DNA from: Deltaproteobacteria bacterium | GTDB lineage: Bacteria; Desulfobacterota; Binatia; Binatales; Binataceae | Assembly (NCBI GenBank): GCA_021780585.1 | Contig: JAJXYM010000232.1 | Location: 1 to 16,757 of the forward strand | Direction of reading: 5' to 3' | Length of the DNA stretch: 16,757 nt | Shown: positions 9,086-16,757 of the stretch, one piece after another | Layout: each line of letters opens with the position of its first letter | Position numbering within the stretch: position 1 is the first letter of the stretch | The notes under the pieces: model-generated | Told to the model about the DNA's origin: nothing | Databases searched by the model: none | Seen by the model: the letters and a program-made list of their open reading frames with translations, nothing else | Translations under genes and position numbers: made by a program

Positions 9086-10288
9086 TTAGTTATCGCCGCC
9101 GCCGTCGCCGGAGCCGCTCGATTGATCCACCGACGTCGCAGCGACGCTGCCGTCCGGCTGGACCACCCCCTCGACGTCGGCCGCGCCCGCGCTCAAGTCG
9201 GCGCAGGTCGCGTTATCGTTGTCGTTGACGCTGATCTGCGTGGTCGGCCCGAGCGTAACCGTGAGCGCGGTATTCGCGTTCCCCGGCGTGAAGGCGAAGC
9301 TCTGCGGGCTCGCGCCGCAATTGATCGCGCCGATCGTCCCCGAGGATTCGAATTGCAGCGCCTGGATGGTCACGCTGTCGGCATTGACCGTGCCGTTCGG
9401 ATTCGCCGCCCCTTCGACTTCGACGCCAGCGCCGTCGGCTAGATCTGCGCAGCTTCCGGGCGTTTCATTGTCCTGATTCTCGATCGAGATTTGCGTGTTG
9501 GCGCTCAGATCGACGGTCACGCTCACGTTGTCCGGATAGCGCGTGACCACGAACGAGGTCGGACAGTCGCTCGACGCGACCGCCCCCTTGAACTCGAGGT
9601 TGTCCGACCCGCCCGCCGATTCGGCGGGATACAGATCCACCTCGGTCGCCGCGAGCGCGCCCGACGAGTTGACGATCGCCTGCGCCGTGACGGGCGTTGC
9701 CGGACTTTGGCCGGCGTAGCTGGCCAGATCGGCGCAGGTGACGATCCGATTGCCGGTCGCGTCGTTCTGGATAATCGTCGCCGACGGATCGAAGCTCATC
9801 GTCTCGTCGCCGGAGCTGGTCGCGACCGTCAGCGTGTTCGGCGTCGCGCCGCAATCGACCGCGGCCAACGCGCCGCTGACCGTGAGGTCCTCCTGCTCAG
9901 CGCTGGCGGTTCCGGCGGTCGGGTCGAGCGCTATCTGATGCAGCGTCAGCCGCGACCCGGCGGGCGCGTTGACCGCAATTTCGCAGCGATTTTTGCCCTG
10001 ACGAATCAGCAGGGTCCGCGGTCCCGCCAGCGCGGCTCCGCGCAAGACGAAGAATCCCGTCTTATGATTCGCCACCACGTGTCGAGCCAAGCCCTTGACG
10101 CCGATCACGACGGCCCCTTTGCCCGGCGTGACCGATCCAGCGATCACGGTGGTTGCCTTGCCCTGGTTTTTCGCCGGTTTTTTGGCCAGCGCCGCCGGCG
10201 TCAGCGTCAACGCCGCCAGCGCGGCGACGGCCGACCCGAAAATCGCGCCGCGCCATCTCCGCGTACTATTGATTTCCAACAAACTCAT
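9086..10288 (-). CDS. Secreted protein with an N-terminal signal peptide and three tandem DUF5666-like repeats of about 100 aa each, two cysteines per repeat.
   Basis: The signal peptide MSLLEINSTRRWRGAIFGSAVAALAALTLTPAALA-KK is preceded by SD GGAGGAGG 8 nt upstream. The ORF-track start 8 codons further up, at 10312, is unlikely. The three repeats share the pattern ...DC(G/P)..P..(F/L).V.......(V/L).V.L...TQIS(I/V).N.DN.T..(C)ADL..GA.VEVEG...P.G(T/S)V.A.SV. The family name DUF5666 is my recollection and is not verified. Confidence 0.75.
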   Translation of the reverse strand: MSLLEINSTRRWRGAIFGSAVAALAALTLTPAALAKKPAKNQGKATTVIAGSVTPGKGAVVIGVKGLARHVVANHKTGFFVLRGAALAGPRTLLIRQGKNRCEIAVNAPAGSRLTLHQIALDPTAGTASAEQEDLTVSGALAAVDCGATPNTLTVATSSGDETMSFDPSATIIQNDATGNRIVTCADLASYAGQSPATPVTAQAIVNSSGALAATEVDLYPAESAGGSDNLEFKGAVASSDCPTSFVVTRYPDNVSVTVDLSANTQISIENQDNETPGSCADLADGAGVEVEGAANPNGTVNADSVTIQALQFESSGTIGAINCGASPQSFAFTPGNANTALTVTLGPTTQISVNDNDNATCADLSAGAADVEGVVQPDGSVAATSVDQSSGSGDGGGDN

Positions 10289-11082: not shown

Positions 11083-11191
11083 ACGCCCGTTTTCCCGTCC
11101 GCCGCGCAAACGCTATGGTGAGACGCCGGCGGCCGACCGGGCCCGGCAAGCGTAAGGCTTACGACGATTTTCCCGAAAATGGTTGACTACG

Positions 11192-13957
11192 ATGAGCAAG
11201 GATAGTTTCAGCACGCGAACGACCCTCAACGTCGGCTCGAAGAGCCACGTTATCCACTCGCTCGAAGCGCTCGCCAAACGCGGCTTCGATCTCGCCCGCC
11301 TGCCGTTTTCGATCAAGGTGCTGCTCGAAAACGTGCTGCGGCGCGAGGACGGGGCCAACGTCACCGCCGACCACGTCGCGGCGCTGGCGCGCTGGAACGG
11401 CGCGCGCGATGGCGATCGCGAATTTTCCTTCATGCCCGCGCGCGTGCTGCTGCAGGATTTCACCGGCGTGCCGGTGGTCGCCGACCTCGCCGTGATGCGT
11501 GACGCGATCCGCCGGCTCGGCGGCGATCCCGCCCGCATCAATCCGCTCCAGCCCGCCGATCTCGTCATCGACCATTCCGTGCAGGTCGATTCCTACGGCC
11601 TGCCGAGCTCCTTCGCGCGCAACGCCGAACTCGAATTCGAGCGTAATCAGGAACGCTACCAGTTCCTGCGCTGGGGCCAGCGCGCGTTCGACAATTTCCG
11701 CGTCGTCCCGCCCGATACCGGCATCGTCCATCAGGTCAATCTCGAATATCTGGCTCCCGTCGTCTTCGTCTCCGCCGCCGGCGAGGCCTATCCCGACAGC
11801 GTCTTCGGCACCGATTCGCATACCACGATGGTCAACGGACTCGGCGTCGTCGGATGGGGCGTGGGCGGAATCGAGGCCGAAGTCGCGATGCTCGGCCGCT
11901 CCAGCCCGATGCTGATTCCGCAGGTGGTCGGGATGCGCCTGAGCGGCGCCCTGCGCCCCGGCGCGACCGCGACCGACCTCGTCCTGACGGTCACGCAGAT
12001 GCTGCGCAAGCAGGGCGTGGTCAACAAGTTCGTGGAATTTTACGGACCAGGAATTGCCCATCTGAGCGTCGCCGACCGCGCCACGATCGGCAACATGTCG
12101 CCCGAATACGGCGCCACGATCGGTTTCTTCCCGGTCGACGACCAGACCCTCGCCTATCTGCGCCTGACCGGCCGTTCCGAGGACCAGGTGCGATTGGTCG
12201 AGGCCTACTGCAAGGCGCAGGGACTCTTCCGCACGGCGGCGTCGCCCGAACCGATCTTCACCGACACGCTCGAACTCGACCTCGGCGCCGTCGAACCGAG
12301 TCTCGCCGGCCCGCGCCGCCCGCAGGATCGGATCACGCTGGCCGCGGCGCGGCGAACCTTTCGCGCCGACCTGGCGAAGGAAGTCGCCAATCACGCTTCG
12401 GCCGATCCGAAAGTCGTCGATCGCTGGATCGCCGAAGGCGGCAATCCCGAGGTCGCCCCGCATGAACGGGTCGCGCCGCCCGCGACCGGGCCGATCGCGA
12501 CGCGCCTCGAAGTCGCAATGGACGGCGAAAAATTCCCGCTCGGCCACGGCGCGATCGTGATCGCCGCGATCACGAGCTGCACCAACACTTCGAATCCCTC
12601 CGTGCTGATCGGCGCTGGATTGCTGGCGAAAAAAGCGGTCGAGCGCGGCCTCACCGTCAAGCCGTGGGTCAAGACCAGCCTTGCGCCGGGGTCCAAGGTC
12701 GTCACCGCCTATCTGAATCGCGCCGGCCTGACGCCGTATCTCGAAAAGCTGCGCTTCAATCTCGTCGGTTACGGATGCACCACCTGTATCGGCAACAGCG
12801 GCCCGGTCGCCGAGCCGATCGCCGGCGCGATCAAACAGGGAAATCTCGTCGCGACGGCGATCCTGAGCGGGAATCGCAATTTCGAAGGCCGCATCAATCC
12901 CGTCGTGCGCTTCAATTATCTCGCCTCGCCGCCGCTGGTGGTGGCCTACGCGATCGCCGGCACGATGGACTTCGACCCGAACGTCGAGCCGCTCGCGCGC
13001 GATTCAAAAGGCGCGCCCGTCTATCTGCGCGAGCTCTGGCCGACCGCGGCCGAAATCGAAGCCGCGATTTCCGCGTCGGTCGATTCCGCGATGTTTCGCG
13101 CGGAATACGGCCAGGTCTTCGAGGGCGACGAGCGCTGGCAGAGCCTGAAAATCCCCGCGGGCAATCTGTTCCAATGGTCGGACGATTCGTCCTACGTCAA
13201 GGCGCCGCCCTTTTTCGACGGCGTCGGACCGCATCCGGCGCCGGTCGGCGACCTCGTCGGCGCGCGCGCGCTCGCGGTCCTCGGCGACAGCGTCACCACC
13301 GATCATATTTCGCCCGCCGGCTCGATCGCGACCGACAGTCCCGCCGGCCGCTACCTGGTCGCCAACGGCGTCCAGCCGAAGGACTTCAATTCCTACGGCG
13401 CGCGCCGCGGGAATCATGAGGTGATGGTGCGCGGGACCTTCGCCAATATCCGGCTCAAGAATCTGCTCGTGCCGGGGGTCGAAGGCGGCGTCACCGCGCA
13501 TCTGCCGGACGGCGCGAAGACGACGATCTATGACGCCGCCGAGCAGTATCGCAAGGAGGGCGTGCCGCTGGTGATTATCGCCGGCAAGGAGTACGGCTCC
13601 GGCTCGTCGCGCGATTGGGCGGCGAAGGGCACGCAACTACTTGGCGTGCGCGCCGTGATCGCCGAGAGCTTCGAGCGGATACATCGCAGCAACCTGGTCG
13701 GGATGGGGGTCTTGGCGCTCGAATTCGTCAACGGCCAGAATCGCGCCAGCCTGGGCCTGACCGGCCGCGAAGTCTATTCGATCGGCGGCCTCACGGACGG
13801 CCTCAAGCCGCGCCAGACGCTCAAGGTGCGCGCCGAGGAAAACGGCAAAGTGACAGAGTTCGACGTGCTGGCGCGAATCGATACGCCCGAGGACGTCGAA
13901 TATATCCGCCACGGCGGCGTATTGCCCTACGTCCTGCGCGAACTGCTCCGCGCCTGA
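11192..13957 (+). CDS. acnA: Aconitate hydratase A (aconitase A).
   Basis: The roughly 921-aa protein aligns with AcnA along its whole length as recalled ([11 protein letters not shown]-type N-terminus here [15 protein letters not shown] ... [24 protein letters not shown] ... [10 protein letters not shown] ... [12 protein letters not shown] ... [10 protein letters not shown]). The ORF track begins at a TTG at 11183. The ATG at 11192 (MSKDSF...) is the more plausible start. The stop is TGA at 13955-13957. Confidence 0.93.
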
Positions 13958-13983
13958 CTAGCGCACGGCCGATCCGACTGGAC

Positions 13984-14133
13984 GTCATGGCCGGGTCTGA
14001 CCCCGGCCATCCAGACCGATGGACCCTCGGGTCACGCCCGAGGGTGACCAAAAAAAAAGCGCCCGAGGGTGGCGGAAAAAAGACGCCCGAGGGTGACGGC
14101 GAGCGCGCCGCGCCGCTGGCTCCGTCATGGCTG
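13984..14133. repeat. Left arm of a long imperfect inverted repeat, built from REP-like hairpins plus a GCCCGAGGGTG/A-run minisatellite.
   Basis: It contains hairpin A (ATGGCCGGG-tctgac-CCCGGCCAT, 13987-14010), hairpin B in inverted orientation (ACCCTCGGG-tcacg-CCCGAGGGT, 14023-14045), GGTCAC-gcccgagg-GTGACC followed by A9 (14050-14058), A6 (14076-14081), then gacggcgagcgcgccgcgccgctggctccgtcatgg. The reverse complement of this segment matches 14621-14857 end to end, apart from a copy-number difference in the internal minisatellite. Confidence 0.85.
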
Positions 14134-14215
14134 GGCTTGACCAACCATCCCGAGAACGTCCCCGAGAACGTCATGGCCGGGCTTGACCAACCATCCCGAG
14201 AACGTCCCCGAGAAC
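14124..14215. repeat. 46-bp tandem duplication (x2) of a degenerate REP unit, gtcatggc(y)gggcttgaccaaccatcccgagaacgtccccgagaac. Each unit contains an internal 12-bp direct repeat cccgagaacgtc x2.
   Basis: The units start at 14124 and 14170 and are near-identical. The second stem half of the hairpin is replaced by CCAACCAT. Confidence 0.85.
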
Positions 14216-14300
14216 GTCATGGCCGGGCTTGACCCGGCCATCCACATCATTCGCACAACCAACCGGCGATCGTCATGGCCGGGCTTGACCCGGCCATCCA
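14216..14300. repeat. Two canonical REP-like hairpins in direct orientation, GTCATGGCCGGG-CTTGA-CCCGGCCATCCA, at 14216-14245 and 14271-14300. The second ends 5 bp from the GIY-YIG stop codon.
   Basis: Both are exact 9-bp stems with a 5-nt loop CTTGA. The same motif recurs 7 or more times in the window. Confidence 0.9.
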
Positions 14301-14305
14301 TGTGA

Positions 14306-14593
14306 CTATGTGAGCCTTTCGTAGAGATCGTCCCAGTGCGGATTGCTGCTCCCGATCAGCGACAGCTTCCACGCACGCGGCCAGTGCTTGAGATTTTTTT
14401 CGCGCTGAATCGCATCTCTGATGTCCTCGTGCCACTCGGTGTGAACCAGCCGTCTTAGGCCATAGCGTTTCGTGAAACCCTCGACCGACCCTTCGCGATG
14501 CTCCCACACGCGGCGCGCAAGGTCGGCGGTCACGCCTACGTAAAGCGTGCCGTTCGGACGATTCGTCATGATGTAGACCCAGCCGCCTGTCAT
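14306..14593 (-). CDS. Small GIY-YIG nuclease family protein (COG2827/YhbQ-YazA-like, 95 aa).
   Basis: The product reads MTGGWVYIMTNRPNGTLYVGVTADLARRVWEHREG ... FTKRYGLRRLVHTEWHEDIRDAIQREKNLKHWPRAWKLSLI. It has the GIY (VYIM) and YIG (LYVGVT) motifs and the conserved Arg, Glu and Asn of the GIY-YIG fold. The ATG is at 14593-14591 and the stop TAG at 14308-14306. The gene is flanked on both sides by REP hairpins. Confidence 0.85.
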   Translation of the reverse strand: MTGGWVYIMTNRPNGTLYVGVTADLARRVWEHREGSVEGFTKRYGLRRLVHTEWHEDIRDAIQREKNLKHWPRAWKLSLIGSSNPHWDDLYERLT

Positions 14594-14594
14594 C

Positions 14595-14618
14595 GCTTCG
14601 ACGGGGCTAGCGAAGCGT
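14595..14618. other. Inverted repeat CGCTTCG-acggggctag-CGAAGCG abutting the GIY-YIG start codon, with no recognisable SD upstream on the minus strand.
   Basis: On the minus strand the 3' arm of the stem ends on the nucleotide before the ATG (…ccccgtCGAAGCG-ATG). This could occlude the ribosome-binding region, and it sits between the gene and the REP at 14621. Confidence 0.4.
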
Positions 14619-14620
14619 GG

Positions 14621-14857
14621 ATGGCCGGGTCAAGCCCGGCCATGACGGAGCCAGAGGCGCGGCGCGCTCGCCGTCACCCTCGGGCGCCCTTTTCCGCCAC
14701 CCTCGGGCGTCCTTTCTGTCACCCTCGGGCGTCTTTTTTCCACCACCCCCCGAGCACCCTTTTTTGTCACCCTCGGGCGTCTTTTTTTGTCACCCTCGGG
14801 CTTGACCCGAGGGTCCATCGGTTGGGATGGCCGGGTCAGGCCCGGCCATGACGGGGA
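14621..14857. repeat. Right arm of the long imperfect inverted repeat, the reverse complement of 13984-14133 with an expanded minisatellite.
   Basis: Hairpin A in opposite orientation (ATGGCCGGG-tcaag-CCCGGCCAT, 14621-14643) is followed by gacggagccagaggcgcggcgcgctcgccgtcaccctcgggcg, which is the reverse complement of 14082-14133 with 1-2 mismatches. Five to six units of the GTCACCCTCGGGCGTCTTTTTT minisatellite follow at 14673-14788, then hairpin B (ACCCTCGGG-CTTGA-CCCGAGGGT, 14792-14814), ccatcggt, and hairpin A with loop tcagg (14827-14849). Confidence 0.85.
14673..14788. repeat. Minisatellite of 22-24-bp units GTCACCCTCGGGCG(T)C + T5-7, with 5-6 copies here against 3 copies (as A-runs) in the left arm.
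   Basis: The units begin at 14673, 14696, 14718, 14742 (degenerate) and 14766. The left-arm counterpart lies at 14029-14081 on the opposite strand, so copy number differs between the arms. Confidence 0.8.
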
Positions 14858-15879
14858 AGGACGTCCGCCGCCGCGGCCATCCGCGCCGGATTCGGCTGCT
14901 CGTGGCCGAGCACCGGATGCGGCCGATAAGGCGCCTCCAGCGCCGCGACTTCCTCCGCCGTCAGCTCGAGCTCAACCGACGCGATAATCTCCTTGAGATG
15001 GTTCGCCTTGGTCGCGCCGACGATCGGCGCGGTCACGCCCGGCGCCTGCAGAATCCATGCGCAAGCCACCTGCGCCGGCGTCGCGCCGCGCTCACGCGCG
15101 ACCTTTTCGGTCGCCTCCGCGATATCGTAGTCGTGCTCCTGATGGTACAGCCCGCGGGCGAAATCGTCCGTGCGCGCCCTGAGCGTCGCCGCGTCTCCGC
15201 CCTCGCGCTTGCGATTCCCGGCCAGAAAGCCGCGCGCCAGCGGACTCCACGGAATCACGCCCACGCCCTGGTCGATACAGAGCGGAATCATCTCGCGCTC
15301 CTCCTCGCGATAGACCAGGTTGTAATGGTTCTGCATCGCGACAAACCGATGCCATCCGCGCTCGCCCGCCGTATGCAGCGCCTTGGAGAACTGCCACGCC
15401 GCCATGCTGCTGGCGCCGAGATAGCGCACCTTGCCATGGCGCACGAGCGTGTCGAGCGCGTCGAGCGTCTCCTCGATCTGAGTCGAATAGTCCCAGCGAT
15501 GGATCTGATACAGGTCGATGTAATCCATCTTGAGGCGGCGCAGGGAGTTTTCGCACGCCTCCATGATATGCTTGCGGCTGAGGCCGCGGCGGTTCGGCCC
15601 CTTCGCCATCGCGCCGTGAACCTTGGTGGCGAGGACGATATCGTCCCGCGACGCCATCTCGCCCAGCCAGCGGCCGGTGATCTCCTCGCTGACGCCGACC
15701 GAATAGACGTCGGCGGTGTCGAAGAAGGTGATTCCCGCTTCCAGCGCGAGCTTGAAATGTTCGCGCGCCTCGTCCGCGCCAACCGTCCATTCGCGCCATT
15801 TCTTGTCGCCGTAACTCATGCATCCGAGGCAGATGCGCGAGACGGTCATGCCGGTATTGCCGAGCCTGGTGTACTGCAT
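14836..15879 (-). CDS. Aldo/keto reductase (YajO/Tas-like NADPH-dependent oxidoreductase). The last codons and the stop codon lie inside a REP hairpin.
   Basis: MQYTRLGNTGMTVSRICLGCMSYG ... ITFFDTADVYS ... the full AKR length of 347 aa. SD AGGAGC lies upstream of the ATG at 15879-15877. The C-terminal codons HGRA* map onto the right half and loop of hairpin A at 14827-14849, and the stop TGA at 14838-14836 sits in the loop TCAGG. Confidence 0.88.
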   Translation of the reverse strand: MQYTRLGNTGMTVSRICLGCMSYGDKKWREWTVGADEAREHFKLALEAGITFFDTADVYSVGVSEEITGRWLGEMASRDDIVLATKVHGAMAKGPNRRGLSRKHIMEACENSLRRLKMDYIDLYQIHRWDYSTQIEETLDALDTLVRHGKVRYLGASSMAAWQFSKALHTAGERGWHRFVAMQNHYNLVYREEEREMIPLCIDQGVGVIPWSPLARGFLAGNRKREGGDAATLRARTDDFARGLYHQEHDYDIAEATEKVARERGATPAQVACAWILQAPGVTAPIVGATKANHLKEIIASVELELTAEEVAALEAPYRPHPVLGHEQPNPARMAAAADVLPRHGRA

Positions 15880-15994
15880 CGTCGCTCCTGTGCGAGTCGC
15901 GTCGTTATGGGCGAATGCGCCGCGTGCTTCGATCGATTGTCGGATTATTCCGAGAAGAAGTTGTCCGCCGCTGGCGCGTTGTCAAGCGTCGCCG

Positions 15995-16215
15995 CAATGG
16001 ATGGCCGGGTCAAGCCCGGCCATGAAGCGCTGCCGTCACCCTCGGGCTTGACCCGAGGGTCCATCGGTCTGGATGGCCGGGTCAAGCCCGGCCATGACGG
16101 TCGCGGACGACGCTCCGCATCGGCCATGACGGTCGCGGACTACGCTCCGCATCGGGCGCGGCCATCGCGCAAACAACGAACGTCATCCTCGGGCTTGACC
16201 CGAGGATCCACGGGC
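15995..16215. repeat. Third REP cluster in the divergent intergenic region between the AKR and tam genes.
   Basis: It contains hairpin A (16001-16023), hairpin B (16035-16067), hairpin A (16073-16095), a 32-bp tandem duplication x2 (gccatgacggtcgcggac(g/t)acgctccgcatcg, units starting at 16091 and 16123), and a third stem variant C ATCCTCGGG-CTTGA-CCCGAGGAT (16185-16207). The module hairpin B+ccatcggtctgg+hairpin A is near-identical to 14789-14853. Confidence 0.85.
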
Positions 16216-16298
16216 GCCGCATTGGCGCCGGCGCTTGTTCGGATGGGACGTGCGCCGTATGCTCGGGCGCGACGCGATCGCGTCCGTGAGTCCGTTCG

Positions 16299-16757
16299 AT
16301 GGCTGATTGGGACCCCGAACTTTATCATCGCTTCCGCCGCTACCGCGCCGAACCGGTCGAATTGATCTTCGCCCGCCTGCGCTTCGCGCGCGGCGCCGAA
16401 GAAAGAATCGTCGATCTCGGCTGCGGCACCGGCGAGCATACGATCGAACTCGCGCGCCGCTCGGGCGGCCACGCCCGCGGCATCGATTCCTCCCCCGCGA
16501 TGATCGACAAAGCCAACGAACTGCGCGCCGCGCTCGACCCGGAATTACGGGCGCGCGTCGCCTTCGTCCGCGAGGATATCCGCGATTTCGCCGCCGAGAG
16601 CGAATACACGATCGTCTTTTCGAACGCCGCTCTGCAATGGCTCGGCGACCATCGCGCGGTGTTGGCCGCCTGCTTCCGCGCCCTGACGCCCGGCGGTGAA
16701 ATGGCGATCCAGATGCCCGCCAATGAGCATGAGACCGCCCAGGCGACCTTGACCGCG
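16299..16757 (+). CDS. tam: Trans-aconitate 2-methyltransferase (5' partial, runs off the window end).
   Basis: A manual translation from the ATG at 16299 gives MADWDPELYHRFRRYRAEPVELIFARLRFARGAEERIVDLGCGTGEHTIELARR ... GIDSSPAMIDKA ... VREDIRDF ... FSNAALQWLGDH ... MAIQMP. This parallels E. coli Tam as recalled (MSDWNPSLYLHF ... DLGCGPGNST ... GIDSSPAMI ... EADI ... FANASLQWLPDH ... LAVQMP). The frame is absent from the ORF track because there is no stop codon within the window. Confidence 0.8.
   Translation, partial: MADWDPELYHRFRRYRAEPVELIFARLRFARGAEERIVDLGCGTGEHTIELARRSGGHARGIDSSPAMIDKANELRAALDPELRARVAFVREDIRDFAAESEYTIVFSNAALQWLGDHRAVLAACFRALTPGGEMAIQMPANEHETAQATLTA

Follow-up and report, generated by a model that had tools for sequence, protein, structure and literature searches.

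The short repeats clustered between positions 13984 and 16209 of a 16,757-nt stretch of DNA (the window) are very probably CGTC-tagged repetitive extragenic palindromes (REPs) of the SRM class, and a 95-aa GIY-YIG protein encoded among them is, from sequence comparison, very probably their cognate Ssn-type nuclease. The host looks like a member of the Binataceae. Its aconitase and a synteny of seven genes match Candidatus Binataceae at 76-85% identity, which displaces the Rhizobiales-type host proposed in an initial annotation of this DNA.

CGTC-tagged REP families were catalogued by Di Nocera, De Gregorio and Rocco (2013, BMC Genomics; PMC3733652), who did not identify the GIY-YIG partner described here. 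Chenal et al. (2025, Nat Commun; PMC11893778) reported hairpins named Ssn-related motifs (SRM; NTS and NTSvar in Neisseria) together with Ssn GIY-YIG single-strand DNA nucleases, and gave biochemistry for four Ssn homologues. No new principle is therefore involved, as the repeats were catalogued in 2013 and the missing enzyme was identified in 2025. The window provides a clean natural example of the rule that recognition depends on fold plus stem sequence, with many stems, essentially all of them paired, and several per locus.

Hairpins with a common frame and paired stems

A hairpin scan and a pattern search based only on the frame agreed on 13 copies, all held by three neighbouring spacers. 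The frame consists of (C)GTC, a 9-bp stem enclosing a 5-nt loop, and CCA. The initial annotation had given it as GTCA followed by a 9-nt stem, thereby counting the A twice, and a literal search for that form returns one chance match and no real copy. Because the A belongs to the stem, the frame is GTC plus a 9-nt stem that starts with A. The family itself was correctly recognised, with 13 copies found against 0.8 by chance. Specifically, the pattern GTC-N9-CTTGA-N9-CC with at most one mismatch gave 13 matches against 0.84 expected, a count reached in none of 200 shuffles. Twelve of these matches fall within 14021-16209 and the remaining one, at 9558, is stemless; the fixed-length pattern skips the copy at 13984 because of its 6-nt loop.

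Perfect stems are present in 11 of the 13 copies, namely seven of variant A (ATGGCCGGG), three of variant B (ACCCTCGGG) and one of variant C (ATCCTCGGG), exactly the counts first claimed. Equally exact was the description of their differences: stem positions 2-5 distinguish A from B, position 2 distinguishes B from C, and every change is compensated. Variants A and C start with AT and B with AC. The tag is CGTC in ten copies and TGTC, GGTC or CTTC in one each, the tail is CCA in intact copies, and the loop measures 5 nt in all copies except one of 6 nt. Altered loops number three, one more than originally counted. As single-stranded DNA the hairpins fold with energies of -10 to -12 kcal/mol (z about -5). 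The peptides quoted in the initial annotation are indeed in-frame translations of the hairpin, and nothing beyond that.

The first spacer opens with an A/B doublet (13984-14048), whose left half is a plus-strand hairpin A (13984-14012; CGTC tag, 6-nt loop TCTGAC, CC tail) and whose right half is a minus-strand hairpin B (14021-14048; loop CGTGA on its own strand). Next comes a plus-strand 46-bp tandem repeat of 2.4 copies (14123-14234), comprising two degenerate A hairpins with the 3' arm CCAACCAT (14124-14151 and 14170-14197) and, as its third hairpin, an intact A (14216-14243, plus strand). Two further A hairpins bracket the GIY-YIG gene with their CC tails facing it. One (14272-14299, plus strand) lies 6 nt past the stop codon, and the other (14619-14646, minus strand, which is the strand of the gene) lies 25 nt upstream of the start codon. 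Beyond the latter, a plus-strand B (14789-14816) and a minus-strand A (14825-14852; loop CCTGA on its own strand) form the left and right halves of a convergent hetero-stem doublet with an 8-nt spacer (14789-14852), part of a 75-nt repeat that is 91% identical to 16035-16109. The third spacer separates divergent aldo/keto reductase (AKR) and methyltransferase genes. It carries a minus-strand A whose tag reads TTC in place of GTC (15999-16026), a second convergent doublet (16035-16098) of B (16035-16062, plus strand, left) and A (16071-16098, minus strand, right) around the 8-nt spacer ATCGGTCT, and the plus-strand hairpin C (16182-16209, or 16181-16208 with its 5' C).

The window thus holds three A/B doublets, and in single-stranded DNA folding a doublet forms two separate hairpins. 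Inverted neighbours with different stems are also the usual arrangement elsewhere, accounting for 66 of 70 and 41 of 48 cases in two independent locus sets. Two arrays are built from half-hairpins. In the array at 14671-14801 (plus strand, period about 23 bp) each repeat combines half of hairpin B, GTCACCCTCGGGCG, with a T-run, and a sister strain is without one 24-bp unit; the array at 14034-14099 (period about 25 bp), which combines half of hairpin B, CGCCCGAGGGTGAC, with an A-run, is its mirror. No folding was found when these half-hairpin arrays were checked for structure.

Pairing extends well beyond this locus. Among 80 loci carrying homologues of the GIY-YIG gene, and with no pairing imposed in the search, 177 of 201 frame matches have at least seven of nine stem positions paired, with 27 distinct perfect stems. 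The covariation score is 0.50, compared with 0.18 for shuffles (none of 500 reached the observed value) and 0.07-0.14 for slid controls. In metagenomes, again with no pairing imposed, 87 of 87 copies of the B/C/D series are fully compensated. A census for uncompensated stem changes thus finds compensation to be the rule, in the metagenomes as in the 80 loci. These data support selection of the stems for pairing, as the initial annotation had argued; part of the apparent compensation nevertheless comes from families with pairing already in place that spread by copy and paste, and not every difference represents an independent double substitution. Outside the stem, 232 distinct copies from other genomes define the extended consensus C-GTC...CC-ACG, with C at position -1 in 95% and A after CC in 96%.

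The relationship to a known REP family, also suggested at the outset, is well founded. Such repeats are common in Alphaproteobacteria including Bradyrhizobium, which is represented among our loci, and families CGTC-3 and CGTC-4 are found mainly in that class, including Bradyrhizobium and Rhodopseudomonas (PMC3733652). Shared with these families are the unpaired CGTC (sometimes TGTC) tag, the CCA tail, a 9-bp stem with A-T first and a 5-nt loop (the published criterion being a stem of 8-9 bp, A-T then T-A, and a loop of 4-5 nt), the presence of several families in one genome, and the lack of an associated transposase gene. Inverted dimers are likewise frequent and mostly heterodimers, as published for CGTC-2 and CGTC-3. 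Unlike CGTC-3 and CGTC-4, variant B has C-G and not T-A at the second stem position, and convergent (tail-to-tail) doublets are commoner here, whereas the commonest published kind is termed HH, which may or may not equal tail-to-tail.

A GIY-YIG gene bounded by inverted hairpins

The gene at 14306-14593 (minus strand) encodes a 95-aa protein in which PF01541 is the only domain found (E = 8.8e-15, residues 4-76). The initial annotation overlooked this gene and left the recognising factor open. Searches of NCBIfam and the PDB, which returned only a sub-threshold intron-endonuclease match and distant UPF0213 GIY-YIG proteins, respectively, gave no subfamily placement. The distances separating Y7, Y18 and E65 (11 and 47 residues) equal those for Y6, Y17 and E64 in N. 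meningitidis SsnA, a comparison of the translation with published residue numbers and not an alignment; mutation of those SsnA residues abolishes cleavage (PMC11893778). The A copies that flank the gene are inverted, 14272-14299 being 100% complementary over 30 nt to 14618-14647.

Chenal et al. (2025; PMC11893778) define Ssn proteins as single-domain proteins of about 94 aa (<150) with blastp E < 1e-10 to SsnA (CAX49033.1), cd10448 as top CDD hit and a repeat within 500 bp on both sides of the gene. The locus resembles that system in its single-domain 95-aa protein, in the inverted hairpins on both sides of the gene (25 nt upstream and 6 nt downstream), in a hairpin frame of CGTC-A, stem, loop, stem and T-CC, and in that the majority of copies are intergenic and lie scattered at a distance from the gene. 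The published SRM search pattern, HGTCWYN(0-2)YYVSBRHN(0-5)WNVSBRGN(0-2)RNCYNB (PMC11893778), is matched by B at 14788 and 16034 and by C at 16181, where 0.12 matches are expected from shuffles. Variant C differs from NTSvar by two mismatches that constitute one compensated pair; the purified enzyme of N. wadsworthii, to which NTSvar belongs, cuts single-stranded DNA near its own repeat (PMC11893778). Three features depart from the published system. The main stem A, which flanks the gene, falls outside the pattern, with zero matches among A copies despite a common tag, tail, stem length and loop length. Several stems occur together in one locus as hetero-stem doublets, and the apparent host family, Binataceae, was not found named in the available part of the report.

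Association of hairpins with the gene recurs among homologues. Across the 80 loci (1.29 Mb; homologues 68-81% identical), 159 of 299 hairpins are no more than 250 bp from the gene; hairpins are present on both sides in 48 loci, and in 30 of 40 the tails of the closest flanking pair face inward. The recurring organisation is a gene between two inverted hairpins with tails inward, and away from the gene there are singles or convergent two-stem doublets that resemble the gene cassette minus the gene. In one locus (L019) the flanking pair is of type B. In a search for residues that track stem type, proteins with the same flanking stem were 74% identical and those with different stems almost as similar, at 70%; a rule of one stem for one enzyme is therefore no more than a possibility.

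From the published biochemistry of the four homologues we infer the following mechanism. When the DNA becomes single-stranded, the strand carrying CGTC-stem-loop-stem-CCA would form the 9-bp hairpin. The nuclease would then bind the hairpin and the C that follows it and cut a few nucleotides 5' of the GTC tag, leaving duplex DNA, RNA and the opposite strand untouched; SsnA does not bind RNA and its action is restricted to single strands (PMC11893778). Recognition would require both fold and stem sequence, as mutagenesis led Chenal et al. to propose (PMC11893778), and a change in one arm would thus be tolerated only with its partner in the other. The various stems, A, B, C and D among them, probably correspond to distinct nuclease/hairpin specificities. 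The strong conservation of the loop (CTTGA/CTTGT) counts against this explanation, as loop identity is dispensable for Neisseria SsnA (PMC11893778); the conserved loop may have some other purpose.

Other explanations for the repeats

Hairpins that act as RNA, as terminators or as 3'-end mRNA stabilisers of the kind proposed for E. coli REPs, would make the GIY-YIG gene incidental. REPs lie mostly downstream of genes and may be transcribed (Di Nocera et al., 2013; PMC3733652), and the spacer at 13958-14305 is downstream of the convergent aconitase and GIY-YIG genes while that at 14594-14835 is downstream of the aldo/keto reductase gene, though upstream of the GIY-YIG start. Such a function appears unlikely, since four or five copies occupy the divergent promoter spacer 15880-16300 and since copies in both orientations relative to transcription retain the strand-specific CGTC tag and CCA tail. 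In addition, a search of 13900-16350 gave no terminator-like site where chance predicts 1.4, the T-runs come after half-hairpins that do not fold, and no Rfam family was matched, a permissive threshold giving only a meaningless miRNA hit. Tight clustering around GIY-YIG genes in the 80 loci, and the lack of RNA binding by SsnA, also speak against it. A secondary RNA effect on neighbouring genes may exist. Function as duplex DNA, either as cruciforms or as sites for nucleoid or topology proteins such as gyrase or IHF, has been proposed for BIMEs, which the alternating-orientation clusters recall, and perfect 9-bp palindromes could extrude cruciforms. We regard this as quite improbable, because a duplex site would have no need of the strand asymmetry of tag and tail that 95% of 232 copies retain, and because it leaves unexplained the association with a kind of nuclease shown to act only on single strands.

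The resemblance to classical REP, BIME and REPIN elements with RAYT tyrosine transposases (Nunvar, 2010; Bertels and Rainey, 2011; Ton-Hoang, 2012) encompasses size, palindromic form, extragenic place and inverted doublets. In both systems a small dedicated enzyme recognises short hairpins from extragenic DNA in single-stranded form (as homologues suggest for the hairpins here), inverted copies surround the enzyme gene, and gene-less inverted doublets are scattered through the genome; clusters show two hairpin types in alternation, as with the Y and Z REPs of E. coli BIMEs. Mobilisation by an IS200/IS605-like RAYT is nonetheless highly improbable. The tag is CGTC and not GTAG, no Y1 transposase domain was found among called genes in 20 kb around the locus, and CGTC repeats were found to flank no transposase gene in any species (PMC3733652). 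The gene between the hairpins, at this locus as in 48 of the 80, codes for a GIY-YIG nuclease, which differs from the HUH-type RAYT in fold and chemistry. Finally, local duplication clearly produced some copies, those of the 46-bp tandem repeat and of the doublet repeat of 75 nt, which might suggest that a few recent duplications in one locus produced compensated variants by chance. This is already refuted by identical 28-mers in Magnetospirillum, Stellaceae and other genomes, by further copies on the same contig about 4 kb outside the window and by the B/C/D series in at least 120 metagenome stretches, all compensated; window shuffles, moreover, never reached the observed count. Confinement of the motif to a single locus is excluded by the same occurrences.

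Comparison with a sister species

Insertion-sequence-like behaviour of hairpin-ssn-hairpin units is put forward only as a hypothesis by Chenal et al. (2025; PMC11893778), and REPIN transposition has direct population evidence to which nothing comparable exists for Ssn elements. Comparison of presence and absence with a sister species, whose housekeeping proteins are 92% identical to those of the window, is the most useful part of this analysis, although the new point is a modest one. In the sister species the gene occupies the AKR-methyltransferase spacer, with a hairpin of type A at one end and one of type D at the other. The collinear site in the window is the A/B doublet 16035-16098, with its hairpins only 8 nt apart, and the window gene, 78-79% identical to that of the sister species, lies in the adjacent spacer. 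Collinearity is judged by where the hairpins fall and by the conserved ends of the AKR-methyltransferase spacer; automatic alignment of the two spacer versions misplaced the large gap and was set aside.

This arrangement is a hint of a hairpin-bounded gene cassette, and the presence of the gene in different hairpin-bounded spacers of two close relatives supplies a concrete pair of sites for the question of insertion or excision. It is possible, though we would not call it likely, that ssn and two inward hairpins form a mobile cassette bounded exactly by them, that convergent hetero-stem doublets are empty sites or gene-less, REPIN-like derivatives, and that the cassette recently entered one lineage of Binataceae from Alphaproteobacteria. 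Such entry would be consistent with the identical 28-nt hairpins in Magnetospirillum and with the closest named homologue of the gene, 81% identical, in the same genus. In more distant Binataceae (five loci, aconitase 82-85% identical) hairpins and ssn gene are absent at this locus; these were rejected as clean empty sites, since their downstream genes differ. At the orthologous site of hairpin C, the sister species has the stem ATTCTCGGG.

Hairpins flanking a gene for a putative GIY-YIG nuclease

The hairpin-bearing region extends from the end of an aconitase gene (13957) to a methyltransferase gene that starts near 16300, and comprises three spacers that are split by a 95-amino-acid ORF and by an aldo/keto reductase (AKR) gene (14836–15879, minus strand). 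A hairpin scan recovered 11 perfect hairpins with 9 bp stems, all located in these spacers, and none of this type in the 14 kb preceding them. The stem counts of the initial annotation were exact: stem A (ATGGCCGGG) occurs seven times, B (ACCCTCGGG) three times and C (ATCCTCGGG) once, with compensated differences between them as it had described. Two more copies of A, both degenerate, reside within a 46-bp tandem repeat. The direct view of hairpin anatomy includes a CGTC 5′ of the stem in 10 of 13 copies and a CCA 3′ of the stem in intact copies. On searching the window for the frame GTC-N9-CTTGA-N9-CC with at most one mismatch and no stem pairing imposed, we found 13 matches where 0.84 are expected, a number reached in none of 200 shuffles. 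All but one of these matches lie within 14021–16209; the exception, at 9558, lacks a stem. Because of its 6 nt loop, the copy at 13984 falls outside this fixed-length search.

Repeats of this class, the CGTC-tagged REPs, were defined as having an unpaired CGTC tag, an 8–9 bp stem that begins with AT, a loop of 4–5 nt and a CCA tail; they are found chiefly in Alphaproteobacteria, Bradyrhizobium included, in multiple families per genome and with 'no dedicated transposase' (Di Nocera et al., 2013; PMC3733652). Chenal et al. (2025; PMC11893778) report that such hairpins, generally named SRM and represented in Neisseria by NTS (CGTCATTCCCGCGMAVGCGGGAATCYRG) and NTSvar (CGTCATACTCGGGNNNNNCCCGAGTATC), flank genes for GIY-YIG proteins of ~94 amino acids, the Ssn family (cd10448). 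In that study, four purified Ssn homologues bound their hairpin solely in single-stranded DNA, with the cut falling a few nucleotides 5′ of it. Of the nucleotides around the palindrome, the preceding three are important in cutting and the following C in binding, and activity was abolished by stem replacement even when the fold was kept. The published SRM search pattern is matched by the B and C copies of the window but not by its A copies, and NTSvar is one compensated pair apart from C.

The 95-amino-acid ORF (14306–14593, minus strand), which is absent from the initial annotation, encodes a protein whose single domain is GIY-YIG (PF01541, E = 8.8e-15) and whose putative catalytic residues Y7, Y18 and E65 are spaced as the catalytic Y6, Y17 and E64 of SsnA. 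One A copy is located 25 nt upstream of its start codon and another, inverted, lies 6 nt past its stop codon; the two are complementary over 30 nt (100%), with both CC tails facing the gene. Homologues of the protein number in the thousands at 70–80% identity. At 80 homologue loci (1.29 Mb searched), the association of gene and hairpin is observed directly: 159 of 299 tagged hairpins lie no more than 250 bp from a GIY-YIG gene, hairpins occur on both sides of the gene at 48 loci, and the nearest flanking pair is oriented tail-inward, as in the window, at 30 of 40. At locus L019 the pair around the homologue is B-type, and elsewhere B thus takes the flanking position beside a homologous gene. 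By analogy with the published homologues, the folded strand would be bound as single-stranded DNA and cleaved 5′ of the tag, with recognition probably dependent on the stem sequence as well as the fold.

Several minor features of the gene and its surroundings were also recorded. A small inverted repeat (14594–14617; CGCTTCG, 10 nt, CGAAGCG) occupies the 25 nt that separate the start codon from the A hairpin upstream of it, and a shorter CGCTT...AAGCG precedes the gene of a sister species (L084, 11173–11197); this repeat may have a role in translation or regulation. Where the stems on either side of a gene match, residue 25 of the encoded protein (L25 in the window) is Leu for 10 of the 11 flanked by A and either Ile or Met for each of the other eight, and the sister-species protein, with A upstream and D downstream, has Ile. 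This residue could be a specificity determinant, or could reflect shared ancestry alone. Five loci (L043, L059, L061, L082 and L083) each carry at least two GIY-YIG homologues within a few kb, and paralogues thus tend to cluster. The 232 distinct hairpin copies from the 80 loci give a consensus that extends beyond the initial frame to C-GTC...CC-ACG. Positions −11 to −3 of these copies, the reported Ssn cut zone, are depleted in G (6–13%) relative to an approximate background of ~33% that was not measured directly.

Selection on stem pairing

Covariation of the stems was assessed in three censuses in which the variable stem positions were free of any pairing requirement. The frame GTC-N9-CTTGW-N9-CC gave 201 matches in the 80 loci of other genomes, with a bimodal distribution of pairing: nine of nine pairs in 122 matches, eight in 52, seven in 3 and four or fewer in 24, the last being chance matches. 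These matches include 27 distinct perfect stems. Among 88 distinct sequences, 80% of cells are paired versus 59% in shuffles, and the covariation score is 0.50 versus 0.18 when shuffled (no score as high in 500 shuffles) and 0.07–0.14 when partners are slid. A metagenome scan with GTCAYYCTCGGGCTTGACCCGAGRRTCC, permitting 16 combinations at two stem pairs, returned 87 matches at 80 loci, all of them compensated (TC/GA 64, CC/GG 15 and TT/AA 8). As the families spread by copying, hairpin copies are not independent events; nevertheless, one-sided stem variants are completely absent, which supports selection on the fold. The structural selection proposed in the initial annotation is supported by the other genomes, where stem changes are mostly compensated, and by the metagenome matches, where they are entirely so.

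A fold under selection might instead act in RNA, as a terminator or a stabiliser of mRNA. However, terminator-like sites were not found in the hairpin region and no Rfam family matches, a divergent promoter spacer contains five of the hairpin copies, and the strand-asymmetric tag and tail are retained irrespective of the direction of transcription. The copies could also belong to a REP/REPIN system mobilized by a RAYT tyrosine transposase, but the genes called across 20 kb include no such transposase.

Hairpin doublets and a gene-less site

Two loci, L084 and L211, represent one related species (99% identical to each other) whose aconitase and AKR share 92% amino-acid identity with those of the window, whereas the GIY-YIG proteins share only 78–79%. 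Gene order in this sister species is aconitase, AKR, GIY-YIG and methyltransferase, versus aconitase, GIY-YIG, AKR and methyltransferase in the window. From the methyltransferase side, the sister spacer reads D(−), A(+), the gene, D(−), ~350 nt of decayed copies and A(+); that of the window reads C(−), A(+), 8 nt, B(−), 9 nt and A(+). Both ends of the AKR–methyltransferase spacer are conserved, and together with the spacer order this identifies the A/B doublet at 16035–16098 as the gene-less counterpart of the occupied site, a difference in presence that is seen directly between the two lineages. The boundaries of the gene-less site fall at the tails of its two hairpins. Closest to the methyltransferase gene, the window has hairpin C where the sister species has D (ATTCTCGGG); the positions are orthologous and the difference is compensated. 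The arrangement fits a hairpin-bounded cassette that may be gained or lost, the direction and mechanism being matters beyond this single comparison.

The window contains three copies of the unit B(+), 8 nt, A(−): at 14789–14852, at 16035–16098 and, inverted, at 13984–14048. Stems differ in 66 of 70 inverted neighbours in one set of loci and in 34 of 35 convergent pairs in a second, independent set, and direct neighbours share a stem in 19 of 29 cases. This heterodimer rule for inverted neighbours was already reported for CGTC-REPs, whose dimers are mostly heterodimers (Di Nocera et al., 2013; PMC3733652). Computed folding of the doublet as single-stranded DNA gives two separate hairpins and no single long one.

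Either side of the GIY-YIG gene are mirror-image tandem arrays (14034–14099 and 14671–14801) with a period of 23–25 bp, in which every unit joins hairpin B's 5′ half to CG and a run of T (GTCACCCTCGGGCG-TCTTTTTT). These half-hairpin arrays do not fold, and their copy number varies by strain, a sister strain (L002) being one 24-bp unit shorter. A 32-bp tandem repeat (16089–16169, 2.1–2.5 copies), each unit opening with the last 9 nt of an A hairpin plus its tag (CGGCCATGACGG), looks like a partial duplication from the hairpin edge.

Host and origin of the module

The best named relatives of the aconitase are all Candidatus Binataceae (phylum Binatota; 76–85% identity), and a named Binataceae assembly (L087) shares with the window (11183–13957 and upstream) the seven-gene order ADH, acetate kinase, cytochrome bd I and II, PNPOx, a 156-amino-acid ORF and aconitase. 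A Rhizobiales-type host, as initially proposed, is thus unsupported. The contig is Binataceae-like, yet its repeat and nuclease module is nearest to alphaproteobacterial named relatives. Among named homologues of the nuclease, the closest are from Magnetospirillum (81%), Telmatospirillum and Stellaceae, which carry the identical 28-nt A hairpin, and the repeat class itself is alphaproteobacterial. Hairpins were not found at the orthologous locus of Binataceae relatives whose aconitases are 82–85% identical. Together, these relationships suggest, short of proof, that the lineage of the window acquired the module recently. The Neisseria NTS core (CGTCATTCCCGCGAAAGCGGGAATCC) is matched exactly by single copies beside the 9-bp-stem family in Paramagnetospirillum and a Rhodospirillales MAG (L018, 6714–6737, and L020, 7530–7553).
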